Below are positions 13,287 through 24,105 of a stretch of 64,000 nucleotides of DNA, piece after piece. A model generated the notes under the pieces. That model searched no databases and had not been told where the DNA came from. It saw only the letters and a program-made list of their open reading frames with translations. Numbering within the stretch: position 1 is the stretch's first letter; the number at the start of each line of letters is the position of its first letter. Origin of the DNA: an uncultured candidate division Zixibacteria bacterium (GTDB lineage Bacteria; Zixibacteria; MSB-5A5; UBA10806; 4484-95); NCBI GenBank assembly GCA_963668625.2, contig CAXXKA010000008.1:1216001-1280000 (forward strand). The letters run 5' to 3'. The position numbers and the translations under genes were made by a program.

Positions 13287-15959
13287 ATGGTCGATATTCC
13301 AAAAGCGTACGATCCGAAGACAGTTGAGGACAGAGTCTACCAGAAATGGCTGGACGCCGGTATTTTCCACGGTGATGTCAATGCCGACAAGAAGTCCTAT
13401 TCAATAGTTATACCGCCGCCGAATGTCACGGATGTTCTGCATATCGGGCATGCCCTGAATAACACTCTTCAGGATATTCTTATCCGCTGGAAGAGGATGC
13501 ACGGGCAGGAGGCCGAATGGCTGCCGGGTGTGGATCATGCCGGTATTGCCACCCAGGTCGTGGTGGAAAAAGCATTAGCCCGCGAGGGACGGTCTCGTCA
13601 CGATATAGGCCGCGAGAAATTCGTTCAGAAAGTATGGAAATGGAAAGAGGATAAATTCGAGCGGATCATTAACCAGTTGAAAAAGATCGGCTGTAGTTGC
13701 GATTGGGATCGAACACGATTCACCATGGATGAGGGCTTATGCAAAGCCGTTATCGAGGTGTTCGTTCAATTGTACGAGAAAGGTCTGATCTATCGCGGCG
13801 AGCGAATCGTGAACTGGTGCCCCGATTGCCTGACCACGCTTTCGGATGATGAAGTCGAGCATGAGGAAATCGATTCTCATCTCTGGTACATTAAGTATAA
13901 GATAAAAGGCTCCGATGAGTTTTTGACCGTGGCCACTACCCGTCCCGAAACCATGCTGGGCGATACGGCCGTGGCGGTTAATCCCGGGGATGAGCGATTC
14001 AAAGACTACATAGGTAAAGCGGCTATCCTGCCGATCATGGATCGCGAGCTGCCGATCGTTGGTGATGAGTATGTCGATATCGAGTTCGGTACCGGCTGTG
14101 TTAAGATCACTCCGGCGCATGATCCCAACGATTTCGATATCGGAATCCGTCACAGCCTGGAGCGTATCAATATCATGAACCAGAATGGTACGTTAAACGA
14201 TAACGCCGGAAAGTATGCAGGTATGGATCGTTACGAAGCGCGCCGTATACTGGTCGAGGAGCTTAAAGAAAAAGGTTATCTCGAGAAGATCGAGGATTAC
14301 AACCTCACCTCGGGTACTTGCTATAGATGTCATACGGTTGTCGAACCGCTCATATCCAAGCAGTGGTTTGTCAAGATGCGCCCCCTGGCCGAGCCGGCGA
14401 TCGCCGCGGTTAAGGAGGGGCGGGTCAAGTTCCATCCCGAGCACTGGGTAAAGACATACCTTCACTGGATGGAGAATGTTCGCGACTGGTGTATCTCCCG
14501 TCAATTGTGGTGGGGGCATCGCATTCCCGTTTACTACTGTGATGATTGCGATGAGGTGATGGTCGCTCGCAGCAAACCCGAAACCTGTGCCCGCTGCGGC
14601 AGCAAGAATATTACGCAGGATAACGATGTGTTAGATACCTGGTTCTCCTCGTGGCTATGGCCATTCTCGACTTTCGGTTGGCCTGATAAAACCCCCGAAC
14701 TGGAGAAATTCTTCCCGACAAGAGCCCTGACAACCGCCTCGGAAATTATCTATCTTTGGGTTGCCAGAATGATTATGGCCTCGCTGGAGTTCATGGGCAC
14801 CGAGCCTTTCGCCGATGTTTACATTCATGGCACGGTCAGGGATGGTGATGGTATCAAGATGTCCAAATCGCTGGGTAACGGTATCGACCCGCTATTGATC
14901 GTTAAAGATTACGGCGCTGATGCTCTTCGTGCCTCGATTATTTTAGCTACGCCCGAGGGGCAGGACCCGCATATATCCGAAAAGACATTCGAGCATGGCC
15001 GTAATTTCGCCAATAAAATTTGGAGCGCCTCGAGATTCGTGCGTATGAACCTGGGCGAGACCAGGCTAACCAAAGATATAGATTTCACCGATGAGAACCT
15101 GGAGATGCCGGATAAGTGGATATTATCCCGTCTGGCAAAATCTATAGGGCTTGTCAATAATTACCTTTCCAGTTTCAAATTCTCCACGGCCGCCAAAGCC
15201 GCTTACGATTTCGCCTGGAACGATTTCTGCAGTAACTACCTGGAAATGATCAAACCTCGCTTGAAACCCGAGAAGAACGGTGATAAGGCCGCTGAAGTCT
15301 CCGCCCGCGCGGCGCGACTGGTAGCCGGTTACGTGCTCACTCGTATTCTCAAGCTGCTGCATCCGTTTATGCCGTTTGTCACCGAGGAGATATGGGGATT
15401 GGTGCTGGAGGATGAGGATAACTCGATGCTGGCCTCGGAGAACTGGCCCGAGCCGAGATTGAAATATATCGATGAGGAACTCGAGGGTTCGATGCAGAAA
15501 GTTATCGAGTTGGCCGAGAAGGTTCGTATCGCCTGTGGTGAACTGGCCGTTCCGCCCGCCAAGAAACCGAAAGTACTGGTCAAATGCGAAAACGATGAAC
15601 TGGTGAAGATTTTCGAAAATCACTCACCGGAGATTCGTAACCTGGCCCGTTCGGGAGAGGTGGAGGTTGGCCGCGATATCACCAAGCCGCCGTTATCGGC
15701 CTCGGCCGTAGTGCCCGGCGCGGAGATTTACATTCCGCTAGAGGGACTTATCGATATCGAGCAGGAGAAAACCAGGCTCGAAAAACAGCTCGAGGAGAAA
15801 ACCGGCTATCGGATCAAACTGGTGAAAAAACTGTCCAACGAGGATTTCGTCAAGCGCGCTCCGGCCGAGGTGGTCGAGTCAGAAAAAGCCAAGCTGATAA
15901 AAACCGAGGAATTGATAGAAAAGTTAAATAAAAACCTTGAATCTCTTTCCGGTTGGTAA
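13287..15959 (+). CDS. valS: Valine--tRNA ligase
   Basis: PPPNVT..LHIGH, DHAGIATQ, TTRPET, DWCISRQLWWGH, KMSKS, C-terminal coiled coil. Confidence 0.98.
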   Translation: MVDIPKAYDPKTVEDRVYQKWLDAGIFHGDVNADKKSYSIVIPPPNVTDVLHIGHALNNTLQDILIRWKRMHGQEAEWLPGVDHAGIATQVVVEKALAREGRSRHDIGREKFVQKVWKWKEDKFERIINQLKKIGCSCDWDRTRFTMDEGLCKAVIEVFVQLYEKGLIYRGERIVNWCPDCLTTLSDDEVEHEEIDSHLWYIKYKIKGSDEFLTVATTRPETMLGDTAVAVNPGDERFKDYIGKAAILPIMDRELPIVGDEYVDIEFGTGCVKITPAHDPNDFDIGIRHSLERINIMNQNGTLNDNAGKYAGMDRYEARRILVEELKEKGYLEKIEDYNLTSGTCYRCHTVVEPLISKQWFVKMRPLAEPAIAAVKEGRVKFHPEHWVKTYLHWMENVRDWCISRQLWWGHRIPVYYCDDCDEVMVARSKPETCARCGSKNITQDNDVLDTWFSSWLWPFSTFGWPDKTPELEKFFPTRALTTASEIIYLWVARMIMASLEFMGTEPFADVYIHGTVRDGDGIKMSKSLGNGIDPLLIVKDYGADALRASIILATPEGQDPHISEKTFEHGRNFANKIWSASRFVRMNLGETRLTKDIDFTDENLEMPDKWILSRLAKSIGLVNNYLSSFKFSTAAKAAYDFAWNDFCSNYLEMIKPRLKPEKNGDKAAEVSARAARLVAGYVLTRILKLLHPFMPFVTEEIWGLVLEDEDNSMLASENWPEPRLKYIDEELEGSMQKVIELAEKVRIACGELAVPPAKKPKVLVKCENDELVKIFENHSPEIRNLARSGEVEVGRDITKPPLSASAVVPGAEIYIPLEGLIDIEQEKTRLEKQLEEKTGYRIKLVKKLSNEDFVKRAPAEVVESEKAKLIKTEELIEKLNKNLESLSGW

Positions 15960-16118
15960 TATATTTACGCCCGCGTTTATTAAACTTGACGTATTCCTGA
16001 TCCGGGCGGGCACAATATAAATTGCTCACAATAGTAACTCGCCGAGAAACGAACTTCACGAGATTTCATCGAGCGGTTTTCGTGGGCACACGATTTTGAA
16101 TAAATACTGCGTTTAGTG

Positions 16119-16145
16119 AGGCGGTTTGATCAAGCCGCCTTTTTT
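16119..16145 (+). terminator. Rho-independent terminator
   Basis: aggcggttt-gatc-aagccgcct followed by a T-run. Confidence 0.85.
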
Positions 16146-16208: not shown

Positions 16209-18962
16209 ATGGAAAAACTTTCAGCATCACAGTTTGCTCGAAAATTAAAAGATCTTATATGTAATGATACTGATAGGAAAATGGTTTTCTTTCTAGGTTC
16301 AGGCTGCTCAGTAAGTTCAGGTATCGGGGATGCCGCTACGCTTGTGAAAAGGTGGCTGCCTCGTTATAAAAAGATAATAACAGGTGATGAAAAGAATTAC
16401 ATTGAATGGGCAAAAGAAAAGTTTCCGGGATTTAATGGAGAAAATTTATCATTCATCTATAAAGACGTAATGGAAAAACTGTTTCATAGTTTAGAGGAAA
16501 GACAAGCAGAAACAGAGGACATCTGTCGAAATAAAGCTCCGGGATTTGGATACGCGGTTTTAGCGCAATTACTTTCTCACAGTAAGTATGGAAAGCATTG
16601 CAATATTATATTAACAACTAATTTTGATGATATAATGGCTGACGCTCTATATTTATTTACGAATGATAAGCCTTTGGTGATCGTTCATGAGTCTTTGATT
16701 AGCTATGTTAAAATTAATTACACCAGACCTTTAATTGTTAAACTTCATGGAGATGCTAGGATTTATCCAAAACATACAGAGGGTGAAACAACAGACTTTG
16801 AAAAAAATGTAAAAGAAAGTGTTAAAAAATTGCTGGTAGAATCAGGCCTTATTTTTATTGGATATGGAGGCAATGACTCAAGCGTATATAATATAATCAA
16901 TAGTTTGCCGCCCGGTGCGCCGCCAACCGGAATTTACTGGGTTGGGAACTCAATCCCAGACACTGACTTAGGTCGAGAGTTAGTGAAAAGGAATGTCGTG
17001 CATGTTGATCATTTTGATTTTGATGAGTTAATGCTATTTATTAAAAACGAATTTGAGTTAGAAAAGCCAAATAAAAAACGTATTGAGAATATTTTTGATA
17101 ACTATAATGAGAAATTTAAAAATTTAAACAAAAAAATATTTAGTAGACCGGAAACTCCTGAAAATGATGAGCTTGAGAAAGCTGCAGATAAAGCTGCCAA
17201 AGAATTTAAAGACTGGTATTCTGTATTGCTTGAAGCTTCTAAATTTGAGAAATCAGAACCGGATAAGGCTGATAATATCTTCAAAAATGGATTCAAAAAG
17301 TTTCCAGGAAGTGTAGAATTGAATGGAGCTTATGCTATATTTTTAAAGGATATTCGCAAAGACTATGATCGGGCGGAAGAGTATTATAAGAAGGCTTTAG
17401 AGCTTGATCCTGACAATGCCATTGTTCTAGTAAATTATGCTAATTTTTTTCAGAATATTCGCAAAGCCTATGACCGGGCGGAAGACTATTATAAGAAGGC
17501 TTTAGAGCTTGCTCCTGATAGTGCCAATGTTCTAGGAAATTATGCTTTATTTTTACATACTATTCGTAAAGCCTATGACCGGGCGGAAGACTATTATAAG
17601 AAGGCTTTAGAGCTTGATCCTGATAATACCATTGTTCTAGTAAATTATGCTATATTTTTAAAGGATATTCGCAAAGACTATGACCGGGCGGAAGACTATT
17701 ATAAGAAGGCTATAGAGCTTGCTCCTGATAATGCCAGTGTTCTAGGAAATTATGGTAATTTTTTACAGACTATTCGCAAAGACTATGACCGGACGGAAGA
17801 CTATTATAAGAAGGCTTTGGAGCTTGATTCAGATAATGCCAGTATTCTTGGCAATTATGCATTATTCTTACATGAAATTCGTGGAGACTTTAACCGGGCG
17901 GAAGACTATTATAAGAAGGCTTTGGAGCTTGATTCAGATAATGCCAGTATTCTTGGCAATTATGCATTATTCTTACATGAAATTCGTGGAGACTTTAACC
18001 TAGCAGAAGAGTATTATAGGAAATCTATAGAGCTTGCTCCTGATAATGCCATTGTTCTAGGAAATTATGCTATATTTTTAAAGGATATTCGCAAAGGCTT
18101 TGAGCAGGCGGAAGACTATTATATGAAGGCTTTGGAGCTTGCTCCTGATAATGCCAGTGTTCTAGGAAATTATGCTAATTTTTTACAGACTATTCGCAAA
18201 GCCTATGACCGGGCGGAAGACTATTATAAGAAGGCTTTAGAGCTTGCTCCTGATAATGCCAATGTTCTAGGAAATTATGCTAGCTTTTTAGATGATATTC
18301 GTAAAGACTATGACCGGGCGGAAGACTATTATAAGAAGGCTTTGGAGCTTGCTCCTGATAATGACAATGTTCTAGTAAATTATGCTATCTTTTTAGATGA
18401 TATTCGTAAAGACTACGACCGGGCGGAAGACTATTATAAGAAGGCTTTGGAGCTTGATCCTAATAATGCCAGTGTTCTAGGAAATTATGCTATATTTTTA
18501 AAGGATATTCGCAAAGCCTATGACCGGGCGGAAGACTATTATAAGAAGACTATAGAGCTTGATCCTGATAATGCCAATAATCTAGGCAACTATGCAGGCT
18601 TTTTACTAGCTCAAGGGAGGCGTGATGAGGGCAAGGAGTATCTTTTTAGAGCGATGAATGACGCTGCAATCCGAGATTTAATCTTAGAATGCAAATTCTA
18701 TTATTATGTGCATATTGATTTTGGCAGTGAGCAGAATATCTATTTAAAAGAAATTAAGAAGTTAATATTAGATAATATTAGATCGCCTAACTTCAACCTT
18801 ACCGATAATGTCAACCGCGCTATTAAGGATGGCCACCCGGAGCCGGAGTTCTTGAAACTGCTGGCTAAGGTTATAGCTGATGAAGTGGATGCTAAAGAGT
18901 TGGATAAATTCGAGGTTTGGCGTAATACCACTATTGATGGTGAAGATGAATCTAAGCAGTAA
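16209..18962 (+). CDS. SIR2-like (SIR2_2) domain protein with a TPR repeat array; putative NADase defence/sensor protein
   Basis: [22 protein letters not shown] and FIGYGGND sirtuin motifs, then twelve 35-aa TPR-like repeats. Visibly AT-richer than the flanks. Confidence 0.88.
17331..18590 (+). repeat. Intragenic tandem array, 12 x 105 bp plus a degenerate 13th unit
   Basis: The Tyr codon of (N)YA recurs at 17331, 17436, 17541 ... 18486, 18591. The core gaagactattataagaaggct..agagcttg is nearly invariant. Confidence 0.95.
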
Positions 18963-18979
18963 TTATTTATAGATCAACT

Positions 18980-19582
18980 ATGCAAACCCTCTCCCAAATC
19001 ACCGAACCCGAGGTTATCCTCGAGTTCCTCAATGCCGAGATCGGCTCGCCCAGGTGGGCCTCAGAGCTTGAACAGCTATTGCAGCAGGAGGGATATGATA
19101 AGTCGCTGATATCAAGGGGCGATACCTCGGACGATACAGAGAATGCTGTTCGCAAGGAGATACTATATCAGTTCCGTGACTGCGAGGATAAACGTCATTT
19201 CCATGGATTGCCGGAGGATATCGTCTGGCATACCACATTGCTATCCGGGGAGGATATTGCCAAGCTTCGATATATGAACTATCCGTTCTGGGTGAATCTA
19301 TCAGGCTGGTCTCGACTCGCTATTGAGGGTGCCGGTAATCTCGAGCGCGCGGGTGTCCGCTCCGATTTAGTTAATCATATTAAACAGACCGCAAAACTTA
19401 TCATCGAGCGGGAAACTCTTCCGAGAATAATACTGCTGGCTAAAAGCATAAAGGACGATCCGGTGATATTAGAGGGGCATATACGAGCTACCGCGTATTG
19501 CTTGAATATCGAGAAGATGTCTGGAAGTATCGAGGCGATTGTCGGCTACTCGAAAAATATCGAAAGCTGGAAATGGTATTGA
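18980..19582 (+). CDS. Hypothetical protein with a ParB/Srx-like motif
   Basis: 200-aa ORF. 'PRIILL...VILEGHIRATAY' resembles the ParB/sulfiredoxin [DE]GxxR motif. Confidence 0.55.
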   Translation: MQTLSQITEPEVILEFLNAEIGSPRWASELEQLLQQEGYDKSLISRGDTSDDTENAVRKEILYQFRDCEDKRHFHGLPEDIVWHTTLLSGEDIAKLRYMNYPFWVNLSGWSRLAIEGAGNLERAGVRSDLVNHIKQTAKLIIERETLPRIILLAKSIKDDPVILEGHIRATAYCLNIEKMSGSIEAIVGYSKNIESWKWY

Positions 19583-19621
19583 TAAGCATTTGCTTACACT
19601 GACTGACTACTGATAATTGAC

Positions 19622-19652
19622 GGATTGCTTCGTCCGCTTCGCTACCTCGCAA
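19622..19652. repeat. REP-like element (GATTGCTTCGTC...CTCGCAA class)
   Basis: ggattgcttcgtccgcttcgctacctcgcaa, with a related copy at 20218-20247. Confidence 0.55.
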
Positions 19653-19677
19653 CAACAGGTTTATCAAACGGCAAGAG

Positions 19678-21675: not shown

Positions 21676-23052
21676 ATGTTGAGAAATTTAACCGCGATTT
21701 TAGTATTAGGTCTGGCTGTCATAGCTTTTGCCGGGGATGATCCCGGAGTGTCTATCACTATTTATAACAATAACCTCGGGCTGGTTAAGGATGTCCGCGG
21801 GTTGGATATTCAAAAGGGTGCCGGTATCCTCGATTTCGATGATGTCGCCTCGCAAATCGATCCCACCAGTGTTAATTTCCGCTGCCTCGATGACGACAAC
21901 GTAGCGGTGCTGGAACAGAACTACCTCTACGATTTAGTATCGACCGAGGCGTTGTTGAAACGCTATCTCGGCAAGCAGATAGAGATAATCGGTGAGGATG
22001 ATACCCGGTTCAAAGGCGAGCTGTTATCGTTCGATAATCGAGCTGCCATTATTAAAGAAGATGGCGGTCAAATCGTGATGATCTCCATGGATAAGCTGAT
22101 AAATGGTCGTTTCCCGTCACTGCCCGAGGGTTTGATAATAAAGCCGACTCTTCGCTGGGAACTGGAATCGAACTCCTCCGGCAATAAAAACTGCGAGGTC
22201 AGCTACCTGACAAGTGGTATTCAGTGGAATGCCGATTACGTGGCGGTGGTAAACGATAAAGACACGAAGCTTGATCTATCCGGCTGGGTGACTATCAACA
22301 ACAGTAGTGGCGCCTCGTACGAAAACGCTAAGCTGAAACTGGTAGCAGGTGATATTCATCAGGTAACCACGCCGCAATTTGATAGGATGGAGATGTCTTT
22401 AAACAGGTCTGGCGCTAAAGCCGCACCACAGTTCGAGGAGGAATCGTTTTTCGAATATCATCTCTACACGCTCAACCGTCCCGCTACGGTAAACGATAAA
22501 GAGATCAAGCAGCTTACGCTGTTCCCCACGGCACAAGCCAAAGTTAAGAAAGTATATATATTCAATTCCCGACCTTCATATTATAGCCGGGGTAGCGATA
22601 AATCCAAAGTCAGAGCTAATCTTGAATTCGATAATACTAAATCAGCCGGCCTGGGGATGCCACTGCCGAAAGGTAAACTTCGCGTTTACAAAGAGGACTC
22701 GCAAGGTGCTCTGCAATTTGTCGGTGAGGACCAGATCGATCACACACCCAAGGGTGAGAAGGTGCGTGTGTATCTCGGGGATGCTTTCGATATTACCGGC
22801 GAGCGTAAACTAATTAATGTTGAAGACCTGGGCGGAGACCGTCGCCGTGAGACTGTCGAGGTTACTCTAAAAAATCATAAAGATGAGGATGTAGTAGTCA
22901 CGGTGGTGGAACGTGCCAGTGGTTGGCGTGAATGGAAGATAGAAAACTCCAGCCATGAATATCGCAAGGTCGATAATTCTCAAATAGAATTCGATTTAAA
23001 TGTTAAAAGTAACGATGAAGAAACTTTAAATTATACAATACAATACTTCTAG
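21676..23052 (+). CDS. DUF4139 domain secreted protein
   Basis: Signal peptide. ITIYNNNLGLVKDVR, IDPTSV, EQNY.YDL, SYLT.G..W.ADY, EYHLY, GMPLPKG..RVY and GED.IDHTP motifs. Confidence 0.85.
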   Translation: MLRNLTAILVLGLAVIAFAGDDPGVSITIYNNNLGLVKDVRGLDIQKGAGILDFDDVASQIDPTSVNFRCLDDDNVAVLEQNYLYDLVSTEALLKRYLGKQIEIIGEDDTRFKGELLSFDNRAAIIKEDGGQIVMISMDKLINGRFPSLPEGLIIKPTLRWELESNSSGNKNCEVSYLTSGIQWNADYVAVVNDKDTKLDLSGWVTINNSSGASYENAKLKLVAGDIHQVTTPQFDRMEMSLNRSGAKAAPQFEEESFFEYHLYTLNRPATVNDKEIKQLTLFPTAQAKVKKVYIFNSRPSYYSRGSDKSKVRANLEFDNTKSAGLGMPLPKGKLRVYKEDSQGALQFVGEDQIDHTPKGEKVRVYLGDAFDITGERKLINVEDLGGDRRRETVEVTLKNHKDEDVVVTVVERASGWREWKIENSSHEYRKVDNSQIEFDLNVKSNDEETLNYTIQYF

Positions 23053-23061
23053 AACGGAGGG

Positions 23062-24105
23062 ATGATGAGTAAAAAATTAATTTTAGGGTTGGCTCTGGTT
23101 TTAGCGGCGATATTTATTTTTGGCTGTCAGCCCAAGGAATTAAGAACTGTTAAGATCGAGCTGGGTACCTGGAAGAAACCGAAATCCAATCCGAGTATCG
23201 AAAGGGTAAAAGAAAATCTCGCTAAAGCGGAGAATACGACGCCTAATAATCCCGAGGTATATTTCCTGTGGGGACGAGTCTATGCCATGGAAAATAATTA
23301 CGAGGAAATGGATAAGTCCTGGGATAAATGTGATGAGCTTTCTGATGCTTTCGATGCCAGCATGGATACATTGCGGATGATGGAATGGGATACGCTTTTC
23401 ATCCAGAGCGCGGTTAAATCTTATCAGAACGGTGATTACGAAGCGGCCCTGGATAAATCGCAAAAAGCGATTATTTGTTGGGAGCATAACTATCAACCAT
23501 TCCTTTACGGCGCGGATGCCGCTTATCGCCTGGGAAACAATGAGCTTGCTTATGATTTGTCCAAAGCAGGTTACGAGGTTTCCCCCGACACGATTACGAT
23601 GGCAAGGTTGTATGCCGAGATGTGTTTCGTGAGTGATAAGCTCGATGAGGCAAAAGGTGTATTCGAGAAACTGATTGTCAATGACGCCACGAACGCCGAC
23701 TACTATTTCAATCTTGGAGAGATTGACCTGGCTCTGGGCGATACCACGAGAGCTCTCGAGTATTATGTACAGGGTTTGGATAAAGATAAGGATAATCCGG
23801 ATGGTTGGCTCAATATCGCAAAGCTGTATTTCCTGCTCAAGAAGTATCCGGAGGCGGTTGATGCATTCGAACATTTCAAATCACTGGCTGAGACTGTCGG
23901 CAAGGATGATATGTTCTTATACCTGCTTGCGGTATATCAGGTAAAGGACTACGAAAAAGCAAGAGCCGAATTGGAAGTTTTCACTATGGAAAATCCGGAC
24001 TATTGCGAGGCCTGGCAGCTACTCGGTAACTGCTACGTTCACTTGCAAAAGAATAAGGAAGCCAGAGCGGCTAACGATAAATACGACGAGTGTGTCGGCC
24101 AATAG
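23062..24105 (+). CDS. TPR-repeat lipoprotein
   Basis: Lipobox IFGC and several divergent TPR motifs. Confidence 0.75.
   Translation: MMSKKLILGLALVLAAIFIFGCQPKELRTVKIELGTWKKPKSNPSIERVKENLAKAENTTPNNPEVYFLWGRVYAMENNYEEMDKSWDKCDELSDAFDASMDTLRMMEWDTLFIQSAVKSYQNGDYEAALDKSQKAIICWEHNYQPFLYGADAAYRLGNNELAYDLSKAGYEVSPDTITMARLYAEMCFVSDKLDEAKGVFEKLIVNDATNADYYFNLGEIDLALGDTTRALEYYVQGLDKDKDNPDGWLNIAKLYFLLKKYPEAVDAFEHFKSLAETVGKDDMFLYLLAVYQVKDYEKARAELEVFTMENPDYCEAWQLLGNCYVHLQKNKEARAANDKYDECVGQ

Follow-up and report, generated by a model that had tools for sequence, protein, structure and literature searches.

The 35-aa TPR array encoded in the 64,000-nucleotide stretch of DNA analyzed here (the window) rather probably serves as the sensor half of a SIR2_2/TPR protein that is encoded by one horizontally acquired gene. 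By analogy, this protein would act as a stand-alone, DSR2-like sensor-NADase, in which an invader ligand triggers NAD depletion and shuffling of the repeat units shifts the specificity, without a small-alphabet code. The gene is located at 16209..18962 on the + strand as a single ORF of 917 aa, whose reading frame is unbroken over 2754 nt, and its product comprises, in this order, a SIR2_2 domain, a helical linker, 12 repeat units, a degenerate 13th unit, and a conserved tail of ~95 aa.

Domain organization of the SIR2_2/TPR protein

The N-terminal part of the protein (aa ~1-290; 16209..17078, + strand) was assigned to SIR2_2, a defence-type sirtuin domain, with Pfam, PADLOC, PDB, and AF2. The Pfam family PF13289 matched with 42.2 bits, above the curated cut-off of 24.5, and strands alternate with helices in this part of the AF2 model. 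By sequence, the closest SIR2 domains are those of pAgo-associated proteins: residues 21-270 matched PADLOC models of this type down to an E value of 1.6e-27, with all seven matched families being Aga_SIR2, pAgo, or candidate PDC-S65, and a phmmer search of the PDB returned the "Sir2 superfamily protein" of entries 8jkz/8in8 (E 2.4e-10), which has the motif residues in common with the window protein. We take these two entries to represent short-pAgo (SPARSA-type) systems. Unlike the pAgo-associated SIR2 proteins, the window protein has no APAZ/Argonaute part (Pfam), and there is no pAgo gene among the nearby window ORFs. Six residues (G30, G32, N138, D140, H180, and D182) were invariant in an alignment of 30 homologues and, by analogy, are candidates for the conserved NAD-site residues of a Gly-rich loop and an active-site Asn/His pair. 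For DSR2, the accessible text of PMC11850899 describes H171A as the catalytic mutant.

The SIR2_2 domain is followed by an all-helical linker (aa 293-368; 17085..17312, + strand), for which AF2 predicts helices at residues 293-312, 317-330, 336-344, and 351-364. An NTPase between the enzyme and the repeats was absent from the 25 best of 27 Pfam matches, and the AF2 model contains only helices between residues 293 and 364.

Beyond the array lies a degenerate 13th unit or cap (18573..18677, + strand), in which helix A is retained and the remainder has diverged; it is conserved in homologues and helical in the AF2 model. The conserved, family-specific C-terminal tail (18678..18959, + strand) was delimited by homologue alignments, and AF2 predicts for it one more TPR-like hairpin and short helices with a pLDDT of 92. 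In a wide structural search with VIA-align, the tail gave generic TPR matches only (Z ≤ 8.7), which covered ~70 residues at the start of the 129-residue model, an Atlas search returned TPR-like clusters only, and the best phmmer match in the PDB was to a designed repeat (E 0.0013). Comparison with NCBIfam gave only TPR cross-matches. Among them was PilW, which scored 191 bits (cut-off, 154) and which we regard as spurious. Family members are receiving wrong PilF/PilW names through such cross-matches.

Architecture of the repeat array

Tandem Repeats Finder detected one array at 17330-18595 with a period of 105, 12.1 copies, 86% matches, and 0% indels. Together with AF2 and the alignment to CTPR, this defined 12 near-identical TPR units of 35 aa and 105 nt each (17313..18572, + strand), which in the register A1..N35 correspond to aa 369-788. 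The residues at positions 9, 12, and 13 of the consecutive units are IKD, NQN, LHT, IKD, NQT, LHE, LHE, IKD, NQT, SDD, IDD, and IKD, exactly as listed in the original prediction, which had also described the unit as one residue longer than a canonical TPR. The phmmer alignment with consensus-TPR crystal chains confirmed the latter statement by placing one extra residue at unit position 14, and as unit positions 1-13 pair with canonical TPR positions 1-13, the position numbering used before was borne out as well. Within the unit, helix A occupies positions 1-15, the turn positions 16-17, helix B positions 18-31, and the loop positions 32-35. Pfam profiles of TPR families matched strongly (TPR_17, E 1.1e-64; TPR_1, E 2e-59; and others), as did engineered and consensus TPR chains in the PDB (E 6e-69 and 1e-46). 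Instead of the 34 residues of a canonical TPR, the spacing was +35 in every array that we looked at. The 35-aa unit is a length variant of the TPR with a predicted helix-turn-helix fold, and the 12-13 units are predicted to stack as a TPR superhelix.

The mean pairwise identity of the units is 72% in the window and reaches 81-87% in homologues; a subset of the window units differs by 5-12 of 105 nt. A near-invariant scaffold, including synonymous sites, had been predicted. This holds true for units 1, 2, 3, 8, 9, and 11, which differ by 1-6 of 81 scaffold nucleotides (most pairs by 1-4), but not for units 0, 4, 5, 6, and 7, which differ by 6-22; the scaffold pS is 0.19. The recent near-exact duplication postulated at ~17800-18000 was found as an exact run of 102 nt (17794-17895 = 17899-18000) and represents the most recent duplication in the array (17794..18000, + strand). 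The run is out of register with the unit boundaries and comprises helix B of one unit and helix A of the next. The duplication is also visible as a duplicated off-frame ORF at 17752..18003.

The best structural and sequence matches of the array were the superhelix of O-GlcNAc transferase (OGT) and CTPR proteins, and the sequence of helix B closely resembles the CTPR consensus. An Asn residue at unit position 6 is conserved in 11 of the 12 units, and OGT has an Asn aligned to this position in 8 of 8 aligned repeats. According to the available part of bioRxiv 10.1101/2020.12.22.423982, an Asn ladder in the OGT lumen contacts the substrate peptide; judged from the periodicity, the ladder residues would be exactly the aligned Asn residues. 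In contrast to OGT and CTPR, the unit described here carries a one-residue insertion after position 13, and the lumen side chains are its variable part.

Variable positions lie on one face of helix A

Variation between the units had been proposed to be concentrated at positions 2, 5, 9, 12, and 13. In the window, the four highest column entropies among the 12 units were indeed those of position 12 (1.96 bits), positions 2 and 9 (1.83 bits each), and position 13 (1.73 bits). The proposal did not hold equally for position 5, which varies weakly between G and V (0.81 bits) and is surpassed by positions 17 (1.28), 1 (1.21), 3 and 19 (1.04 each), and 32 (1.00). Variation peaked at the helix-A face in 47 homologues, too, where position 3 joins the set.

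A helical wheel analysis supported the clustering of the variable sites on one face of helix A, with a moment of 0.47 that was reached by 64 of 5000 shuffles (p 0.013). Positions 2, 5, 9, 12, and 13 deviate by no more than 52 degrees from the direction of variability, and the conserved positions 4, 7, 11, and 14 are found on the opposite side, whereas helix B showed no one-sided variability in the same analysis (p 0.54). In the accessible text of Magliery and Regan (2005; PMC1261162), TPR positions 2, 5, 9, 12, 13, 33, and 34 are the most variable ones and line the concave face. On the basis of this report and the CTPR alignment, the variable positions correspond to the canonical concave-face positions, as had been assumed, and the residues that differ between the units thus appear to sit on the side of helix A that borders the concave lumen in TPR domains of known structure.

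Recombination and selection within the array

Ongoing unequal crossover or gene conversion had been inferred from the repeat pattern, and several observations agree with it. In a PHI-type test among the units, none of 5000 permutations gave a value as low as the observed one, 153 of 351 pairs of informative sites were incompatible, and the nearest unit changed between segments of one and the same unit. The units of the array are recombinant mosaics. Units are also gained and lost on short time scales in the family, as near-identical alleles differ by whole units; for example, P0012 with two units and P0013 with three units share an N-terminal core that is identical in 350 of 350 residues. Such whole-unit differences support unequal crossover or gene conversion, and these processes keep the units alike and also add, delete, and re-assort them.

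This behavior resembles that of the highly internally conserved (HIC) repeats of fungal and bacterial NLRs. The available portion of PMC4986451 describes TPR, ANK, and WD repeats with near-identical units, number polymorphism, reshuffling, and a concave face whose sites are variable or under positive selection, and that of bioRxiv 10.1101/2020.01.06.895854 gives an internal identity of 80-90% for the repeats of bacterial NLRs. Near-identical units, number polymorphism, reshuffling, and a variable concave TPR face are shared with the family described here. The differences are the lack of a NOD/STAND NTPase, the direct fusion of the repeats to the effector, and the 35-aa period. Compared with the HIC threshold in the accessible part of PMC4986451 (≥ 85% identity over ≥ 100 aa), the mean identity is 72% in the window and up to 87% in homologues.

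The original prediction had further invoked diversifying selection. In the window, the ratio of dN at positions 2, 3, 9, 12, and 13 to scaffold dS was 2.73 (bootstrap, 1.59-5.18). The lower bootstrap bound of this ratio exceeded 1 in 8 of 21 arrays and in 7 of the 8 arrays with a scaffold dS of ≤ 0.35, the other young arrays reaching 2.5- to 6-fold. Pooled per-position omega was above 1 at positions 2, 3, 9, 12, and 13 only (1.16-1.59), compared with 0.22 for the scaffold, and the N:S ratio of hypervariable versus scaffold codons gave an odds ratio of 3.6 (p 3e-19; 20 arrays). Compared with synonymous differences in the scaffold, those at the lumen positions are retained at a higher rate. However, omega on the hypervariable codons themselves, determined from minimum-spanning-tree event counts, was not significantly above 1 (1.77 with p 0.34 in the window; 1.05 with p 0.39 in 20 other arrays), and close allele pairs of equal length, an underpowered set of five, showed no enrichment of differences at the hypervariable positions (13/75 versus 59/450, p 0.36; for one pair, an out-of-register comparison of the N-terminal parts was disregarded). 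Diversifying selection at positions 2, 3, 9, 12, and 13 is therefore only suggestive.

It is conceivable, though in our estimation unlikely, that there is no selection for diversity at all and that a recent tandem amplification produced the near-identical scaffolds, with the five positions being the least constrained, solvent-exposed ones that drift neutrally. The event-count omega of about 1 is consistent with such drift, and the same positions are generically the most variable ones in all TPR proteins, as far as the accessible text of PMC1261162 describes them. The excess of dN at these positions over scaffold dS (2.7-fold in the window and with lower bounds above 1) argues against it, because neutral sites should not outpace the synonymous sites of the same units. 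Furthermore, the mosaic units point to repeated exchange rather than a single amplification, and the pattern was seen again in the 47 homologues, whose arrays are of very different age.

A low-GC insert in a variable slot downstream of valS

The valS gene ends at 15959, and the SIR2_2/TPR gene is inserted directly downstream of it. A terminator-like hairpin after valS, consisting of a 10-pair stem followed by a T run (16118..16141, + strand), marks the left edge of a low-GC insert: the GC content is 0.341 in the SIR2 part, 0.371 in the array, and 0.390 in the tail, compared with 0.510 for valS and 0.505 for the OCD gene. The gene was not found in either of two genomes of the same genus, and strong matches (E ≤ 1e-100) with 52-57% identity were present in only 3 of 40 relatives. 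The gene thus represents a low-GC island that was acquired horizontally. In two related genomes, the orthologous valS is followed by other defence-type genes, namely by both genes of a PD-Lambda-5 pair in G006 (complete; E 4e-135 and 1e-120) and by a gene for one protein with nSTAND_NTPase5 and TPR in G001; in genome G004, only ~1.1 kb separate valS from DUF4139. The site downstream of valS appears to be a variable, defence-type slot. The flanks of the window gene itself are the housekeeping genes valS, an OCD family gene, and PriA.

The possibility of a multi-gene system was rejected because no neighbour was conserved in 80 homologue loci. Blastp with the window neighbours valS, ORF200, a 131-aa ORF, and OCD gave no match among the ORFs of these loci, and clustering of their 2201 flank ORFs recovered the gene itself in 77 loci, together with off-frame and antisense repeat ORFs, the next real cluster being present in 7 loci. 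Guilt by association therefore rests on the valS slot and on one plasmid: relatives of the gene occur on plasmids, and in one case, a conjugative plasmid of Rhizobium, the neighbouring genes carry the annotations FRG domain, S8 peptidase, and NERD-domain kinase.

Homologues and alternative N-terminal heads

With the N-terminal part as query, 672 homologues were found at E ≤ 1e-3, whose lengths differ by multiples of ~35 aa and whose phylogenetic distribution over bacteria and archaea is patchy. The arrays examined in homologues contain 3-12 units, those with 9-12 units being found in other assemblies. With an E value limit of 1e-10, a profile of the cap plus tail recovered at least 701 cluster representatives. 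A SIR2 head was present in 58 of the best 150 of these matches, and among the 24 matches that have at least 250 aa of other N-terminal sequence, one carried Pkinase, one Mrr_cat, and six a CbiA/AAA_31 P-loop domain. The proteins with heads other than SIR2 have the same 35-aa units with the same variable positions. On viral contigs, all 42 loci matched the SIR2 part alone (within query residues 2-308), and none had the array and tail.

The term "SIR2-TPR" was not found in a literature search, and the family is absent from the accessible parts of Altae-Tran 2020 (PMC10392669), Altae-Tran 2023 (PMC10910872), and Kaur 2020 (PMC7159879). The available text of the FAM118 paper (PMC12700824) labels some leaves of a SIR2_2 tree as "TPR" and contains nothing more on the family.

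As a tentative and rather speculative extension of these findings, the 35-aa TPR array and the tail may form a recognition cassette, found in bacteria and archaea, that is portable and diversifies itself. Recombination among the near-identical units would re-assort the lumen cassettes (codons 2-3 and 9-13) and alter the number of units, and would thereby create new surfaces to which an extended invader peptide could bind, with the Asn ladder at position 6 holding it. The cassette would be attached to interchangeable heads such as a SIR2 NADase, an Mrr-type nuclease, a kinase, or a P-loop NTPase.

Proposed function as a sensor-NADase

In the mechanism that we favor for the window protein, the TPR lumen would bind an invader-derived ligand, either a protein or an extended peptide, and ligand binding would turn on the SIR2 domain as an NADase by analogy with DSR2. 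The activated SIR2 domain would deplete NAD and cause abortive infection, and unit shuffling would be the way in which the family changes its specificity. DSR2 (defence-associated sirtuin 2) of Bacillus subtilis combines a SIR2 domain with an alpha-solenoid sensor, and binding of a phage tail tube protein activates NAD depletion, as reported in the accessible text of PMC11850899. Both proteins are single polypeptides in which a helical linker connects a SIR2 NADase-type domain at the N terminus to an alpha-solenoid sensor at the C terminus, and both have no NTPase, but DSR2 has HEAT-like repeats in place of the regular 35-aa TPR array and the family-specific tail. No PADLOC DSR model matched the window protein, and no DSR2 chain was among the eight PDB matches obtained with phmmer at E ≤ 1. 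The resemblance to DSR2 is one of architecture only. Avs5, a SIR2-STAND-TPR protein (available portion of PMC12931631), likewise has a SIR2 effector and a TPR-type sensor in one protein and an antiviral context. In Avs5, however, a STAND NTPase is located between effector and sensor, where the window protein has a 75-aa helical linker alone. Points against the sensor-NADase reading are the housekeeping flanks, the lack of a conserved neighbour in 80 loci, and the missing PADLOC DSR match, as well as the nonsignificant omega, the close alleles without an excess of lumen differences, and the viral loci that match the SIR2 part alone.

An alternative to which we give little weight is a non-immune, ligand-gated NAD switch or scaffold, in which the array binds a cellular partner, each unit touching a different part of a fixed ligand, and SIR2 regulates metabolism or dormancy. 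It would be compatible with the housekeeping flanks in the window and the absence of conserved defence neighbours from the 80 loci, with close alleles that differ no more at the lumen than in the scaffold (13/75 versus 59/450), and with an omega not above 1 on the lumen codons. A cellular switch is less easily reconciled with a low-GC insert that was not found in same-genus genomes, with the PD-Lambda-5 or STAND-TPR gene in the valS slot of relatives, and with the patchy phylogenetic spread over bacteria and archaea. The number of units, moreover, varies between near-identical alleles, a range of 1 to 12 units would not be tolerable for a fixed cellular ligand, and the sensor cassette is joined to nuclease, kinase, or P-loop heads.

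A small per-repeat code is not supported by the array

The original prediction had suggested an underlying IKD-NQx-LHx trimer and a per-repeat code as in TALE or PPR proteins. The trimer order is kept in units 0-5 and broken afterwards. As a 315-bp higher-order repeat by descent, the trimer was rejected, since units of the same type were no closer to each other at scaffold sites than units of different types (9.17 versus 9.31 nt, permutation p 0.43) and no lag-3 minimum was present at the scaffold sites of the 12 units. A small code of the TALE/PPR type was not supported either, because the 390 protein-triplet combinations of the family include 275 different triplets at positions 9/12/13. Three of the seven triplets of the window (NQN, NQT, and LHT) are unique to it, being absent from all other proteins of the 120 compared.

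TALE and PPR proteins also consist of tandem, near-identical helical units of ~34-35 aa that differ at few fixed positions. A per-repeat code would mean that each unit reads one element, either a nucleotide or a residue pair of an extended peptide, via positions 2, 5, 9, 12, and 13, and that the few unit types are code words. Several features could be interpreted along these lines: the 35-aa period as in PPR, with units that are otherwise near-identical; the four IKD cassettes, which are identical in nucleotides over codons 9-13; the recurrence of triplets in unrelated proteins above independence (IKD in six proteins with an observed/expected ratio of 1.9, LKN with 4.1); and the Asn ladder at position 6, which would fit a modular binding to the backbone of an extended peptide. 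We nevertheless regard such a code as very improbable. The triplet diversity shows no small alphabet of specificity residues, the scaffold sites have no three-unit periodicity, and neither a nucleic-acid-binding domain nor a basic stripe was noticed. Neither a PPR nor a TALE family was among the 25 best of 27 Pfam matches, and the strong matches were TPR families, with helix B near the CTPR consensus.

Integrity of the assembled array

A mis-assembly of a shorter or heterogeneous array as the source of the unit number or order is in our estimation very unlikely: although no short-read contig spans the array and contigs break inside it, all unit-specific contig pieces from three runs match the window with 0 differences and without listed alternative joints or variants (one sample, possibly the source of the window), the frame is intact, 9-12-unit homologues exist in other assemblies, and the contig belongs to a 10-contig assembly of 4.3 Mb. 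For this check we used Logan short-read contigs of runs X1-X3, which cover every 121-base bin of the stretch; contigs of run X4 gave no match to it. Loose contig ends were observed at 19620-19656. These ends are likely to stem from other organisms of the sample, as the 35-mer is single-copy in the genome.

Implications for the family

One-protein SIR2 sensors such as DSR2 have irregular solenoids, and their specificity is hard to read from the sequence. The sensor described here is a regular array, whose putative specificity-determining residues can be assigned to individual positions, and the same cassette is combined with four or more kinds of N-terminal head. Should the family not be immune, at least 701 cluster representatives with the tail belong to a family that is still without an assigned function. 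If the portable-cassette reading is true, the family would be an NTPase-free prokaryotic counterpart of the repeat shuffling of fungal NLRs, with a ligand reading that is unit by unit but not based on a small alphabet. If it is a defence system, it would provide a natural near-consensus TPR scaffold for peptide-binder engineering and a tractable model of prokaryotic receptors that change specificity by intragenic recombination, which has so far been documented mainly in fungal NLRs.

Results

Tandem Repeats Finder detected one array in the window (17330-18595; period 105, 12.1 copies, 86% matches, no indels), which lies inside a single open reading frame of 917 aa on the + strand (16209..18962). 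With the Ala that follows the 'DPDN' loop as first residue of each unit, the protein contains twelve full 35-residue units (aa 369-788 = nt 17313-18572, +), followed in the same register by a degenerate thirteenth unit (aa 789-823, +) and a C-terminal remainder of ~95 residues (+). In phmmer alignments with consensus-TPR crystal structures, unit positions 1-13 align with canonical TPR positions 1-13, one residue is inserted at position 14, and helix B is near the CTPR consensus. By these alignments, the original prediction was right that the unit is a canonical 34-residue TPR plus one and in its position numbering, and its list of residues at positions 9/12/13 was reproduced exactly in the printed protein register. 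The AlphaFold2 model, based on an alignment of 30 homologues, was confident (mean pLDDT 87.7) and predicts helix A (1-15), a two-residue turn, helix B (18-31), and a four-residue loop thirteen times over; the OGT TPR superhelix and CTPR proteins were its top structural matches in Foldseek. Other frames and the opposite strand of such arrays contain spurious long ORFs (window 17752-18003, +, and 49 homologue loci), which cluster across loci and thereby mimic conserved genes.

The N-terminal ~290 residues form a SIR2_2 domain (PF13289, 42.2 bits versus a cut-off of 24.5). The SIR2 part also matches PADLOC models of pAgo-associated SIR2 proteins (E down to 1.6e-27), the candidate family PDC-S65, and the PDB 'Sir2 superfamily protein' chains 8jkz/8in8 (E 2.4e-10), and Gly30, Gly32, Asn138, Asp140, His180, and Asp182 are invariant across 30 homologues. 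In the AlphaFold2 model, a 75-residue helical linker alone separates the SIR2 domain from the repeats, and no NTPase was found in this model or among the best 25 of 27 Pfam matches. The tail gave generic TPR matches only, over its first ~70 residues, and its last ~50 residues had no match in PDB, Atlas, and structure searches.

With residues 1-370 as query, 672 homologues were retrieved at E <= 1e-3 (best non-self identity, 56%). The family architecture is SIR2_2, n units of exactly 35 aa, a degenerate cap, and a conserved tail; protein lengths vary by multiples of ~35 aa, with 3-12 units in the arrays examined. According to source labels, the family occurs in archaea (Methanosarcinales, Halobacteria, Heimdall- and Odinarchaeota) and bacteria (Zixibacteria, Desulfobacteria, Chloroflexota, Gemmatimonadota, Verrucomicrobiota, Actinomycetota, Myxococcota, Azospirillum, and others), a very patchy spread, and Heimdallarchaeota loci match residues 1-904 of the window protein. 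The window protein exceeds the cut-off of the NCBIfam PilW equivalog TIGR02521 (191 versus 154 bits) purely via its repeats, and several homologues carry the source names 'Tfp pilus assembly protein PilF' or 'O-mannosyl-transferase', which are likely systematic mis-annotations of the family. On a Photobacterium toruni plasmid (locus L103, 975-3125), a 716-aa protein combines a related SIR2 head (28.5% identity) with some nine very similar TPR units, which alternate between two types at spacings of 33 and 34 aa. The family tail is absent, and the protein seems to represent a distinct branch that displays near-identical repeats as well.

Variation had been predicted to concentrate at unit positions 2, 5, 9, 12, and 13. 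Positions 12, 2, 9, and 13 are indeed the four most variable columns in the window (1.73-1.96 bits), but position 5 is weak (G/V only, 0.81 bits); further variable columns are 17, 1, 3, 19, and 32. On a helical wheel, the variable residues of helix A gather on one side (moment 0.47, permutation p 0.013), with positions 2, 5, 9, 12, and 13 all <=52 degrees from its direction and the conserved positions 4, 7, 11, and 14 opposite; helix B of the window units showed no one-sided variability. TPR positions 2, 5, 9, 12, 13, 33, and 34 were described as the most variable ones, located on the concave ligand-binding face (Magliery & Regan 2005, PMC1261162), and by this literature and the alignment to the consensus TPR the variable helix A positions map to the predicted concave face. 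The pattern is not peculiar to the window gene and recurs in 47 homologues that had four or more scored units: mismatch within a protein is highest at positions 2 (0.79), 9 and 13 (0.76), 3 (0.71), and 12 (0.70), next come 35, 1, and 5, and positions 7, 8, 11, 21, 22, and 33 show <=0.10.

Pairwise Nei-Gojobori omega in the window was 0.74 overall, 1.87 at the five predicted positions, 2.96 at positions 2, 3, 9, 12, and 13 (termed hypervariable), and 0.46 in the scaffold. In 20 other arrays pooled, omega was 1.19 at the hypervariable positions and 0.22 in the scaffold, and per-position values exceeded 1 at 2, 3, 9, 12, and 13 only (position 5, 0.55). Nonsynonymous relative to synonymous events were in excess in hypervariable versus scaffold codons of the 20 arrays (odds ratio 3.6, p 3e-19); in the window alone, the same excess was not significant (p 0.11). 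These counts and those that follow are no more than indicative, resting on non-independent unit pairs and five codons only. The predicted diversifying selection was suggested when the many scaffold synonymous sites served as clock, dN(hypervariable)/dS(scaffold) being 2.73 in the window (bootstrap 1.59-5.18), but not on the hypervariable codons' own account, where omega >1 was not significant (window 1.77, p 0.34; 20 arrays 1.05, p 0.39). The ratio exceeded 1 in 15 of 21 arrays, with a lower bound >1 in eight of them; seven of these belong to the eight arrays whose scaffold dS was <= 0.35. This excess fits either diversifying selection or selection that maintains older differences in the lumen as the scaffolds are homogenised by conversion. 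In five close equal-length allele pairs, 13/75 hypervariable versus 59/450 scaffold positions differed (p 0.36), which, in this small sample, speaks against a fast arms race.

Recombination among units, as originally proposed, was borne out: 153 of 351 site pairs were incompatible (27 informative sites), a PHI-type statistic lay below all 5000 site permutations, and the nearest unit differs by segment. For example, unit 8 (counted from 0) is identical to unit 11 over codons 1-8 and to unit 4 over codons 9-13; its codons 14-35 most resemble those of unit 1. The recent near-exact duplication was confirmed as a 102-nt stretch at 17794 that recurs without change at 17899, one unit further on; its ends do not coincide with unit boundaries. 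Unit turnover is also seen between close alleles elsewhere in the family: P0012 (2 units) and P0013 (3 units) have 350/350 N-terminal core residues and the tail in common, the L010 gene (4 units) and P0006 (3 units) have a 100% identical N-terminal core (BLAST), P0018 (3 units) and P0023 (1 unit) show 95.7% identity, and more close pairs differ by ~70 aa, i.e., two units. A higher-order IKD-NQx-LHx trimer (residues at 9/12/13) did not hold: leaving out positions 1, 2, 3, 5, 9, 12, 13, and 35, same-type units were 9.17 nt apart versus 9.31 for different-type units (p 0.43), and lag 3 was not a minimum of scaffold distance between window units. The four IKD cassettes are identical at the nucleotide level, and recurring cassettes sit on unrelated scaffolds, a pattern that would follow from transfer of codons 9-13 in short conversion tracts or from selection retaining them.

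The suggested TALE- or PPR-like per-repeat code was unsupported. Among 120 family proteins (440 scored units), 390 protein-triplet combinations comprised 275 distinct 9/12/13 triplets; the commonest, LKN, occurred in 13 proteins, and NQN, NQT, and LHT were confined to the window protein. Judged from sequence, such diversity is the mark of a putative diversified binding surface and unlike the restricted residue sets of TALE RVDs or the PPR code. Neighbouring hypervariable positions co-vary modestly in these proteins, as expected from adjacent helix positions and shared descent. Asn occupies unit position 6 in 11 of 12 window units and aligns with the conserved OGT Asn in 8/8 aligned repeats. 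As the lumen Asn ladder of OGT contacts substrate peptide (bioRxiv 10.1101/2020.12.22.423982), the array may by analogy make modular contact with an extended peptide.

A cap-plus-tail profile built from alignment A2 matched 1122 cluster representatives at E <= 1e-3 and 701 at E <= 1e-10. Among the best 150 matches, 58 had a SIR2 head (local HMM from alignment A1), and 24 had 250 or more residues of other sequence ahead of the first unit. At E <= 1e-7, Pfam assigned to these 24 N termini one protein kinase, one Mrr_cat (with MraZ-like), and six CbiA/AAA_31-type P-loop heads; 16 had no N-terminal match. These 24 proteins share the 35-aa units, the tail, and the variable positions, and their internal identity reaches 83%. 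Exchangeable heads on a common sensor would be a trait typical of immune-type proteins.

The SIR2-TPR gene is of foreign origin. Its GC content is 0.341 (SIR2 part), 0.371 (array), and 0.390 (tail), with 0.510 in valS and 0.505 in the OCD-family gene; a terminator-like hairpin follows valS (16118-16141). The gene was not found in either of two same-genus genomes (96% and 89% complete), and only 3 of 40 relatives gave strong matches (52-57% identity). None of its window neighbours had a homologue in 80 homologue loci and no flanking gene was conserved among them, and SIR2-TPR is therefore a single-gene unit. In relatives, valS orthologues (72-81% identity) are followed by a complete PD-Lambda-5 pair in the same-family genome G006 (L100 3304-5633; A, E 4.4e-135; B, E 1.2e-120) and by an nSTAND_NTPase5 plus TPR protein running off the contig in the same-genus genome G001 (L099 1-1980); in G004, only ~1.1 kb separates valS from the DUF4139 gene, versus 5.7 kb in the window. 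The valS slot is thus a variable site, which repeatedly holds defence-type cargo in this bacterial family. The DUF4139 gene and a 347-aa TPR protein after it (21676-24105), syntenic with valS in two same-family genomes, mark the native right-hand border. The near-identical TPR units of the G001 protein reach the contig end. The SIR2 part has relatives on 21 plasmid records. One of them also has the family tail; it is encoded on a conjugative Rhizobium plasmid next to genes annotated as FRG domain, S8 peptidase, and NERD-domain kinase.

A 200-aa ORF (18980-19582, +; native-like GC of 0.486) starts 17 nt past the SIR2-TPR stop. It had no match in Pfam, NCBIfam, and PADLOC and was not found in 5 relatives or 80 homologue loci; its Atlas neighbours are widespread hypothetical clusters of ~200 aa (score 0.97). 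At 19620-19656, several short-read contigs match ~35 bases only and diverge on either side; as this 35-mer is single-copy in the window's genome, they are probably from other organisms of the sample.

Discussion

The analysis shows the architecture, intact SIR2 motifs, foreign origin, variable defence-type slot, concave-face variability, and recombination with unit turnover. In the most likely mechanism, the lumen would bind an invader protein or peptide, ligand binding would turn on NADase activity of the SIR2 domain in the manner of DSR2, and unit shuffling would alter specificity. In DSR2, an NADase-type SIR2 domain is activated through sensor binding, which serves as model for the activation step (PMC11850899); the one-protein logic of SIR2 plus solenoid is already known there. 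Repeats that are nearly identical, polymorphic in number, and variable on the concave face were described for fungal NLRs (PMC4986451) and noted in bacterial ones (bioRxiv 10.1101/2020.01.06.895854). The repeats of the window gene and its family resemble these, but the SIR2 head is NTPase-free and joined directly to them.

The term 'SIR2-TPR' was not found in the literature searched; the tree legend of the FAM118 paper (PMC12700824) merely labels some SIR2_2 proteins 'TPR', and PADLOC covers SIR2-TPR by a weakly matching candidate family only. What is new is that two features come together: an NTPase-free SIR2 head sits directly on a regular array of 35-aa TPR units that has its own tail, and this cassette is common to nuclease, kinase, and P-loop heads.
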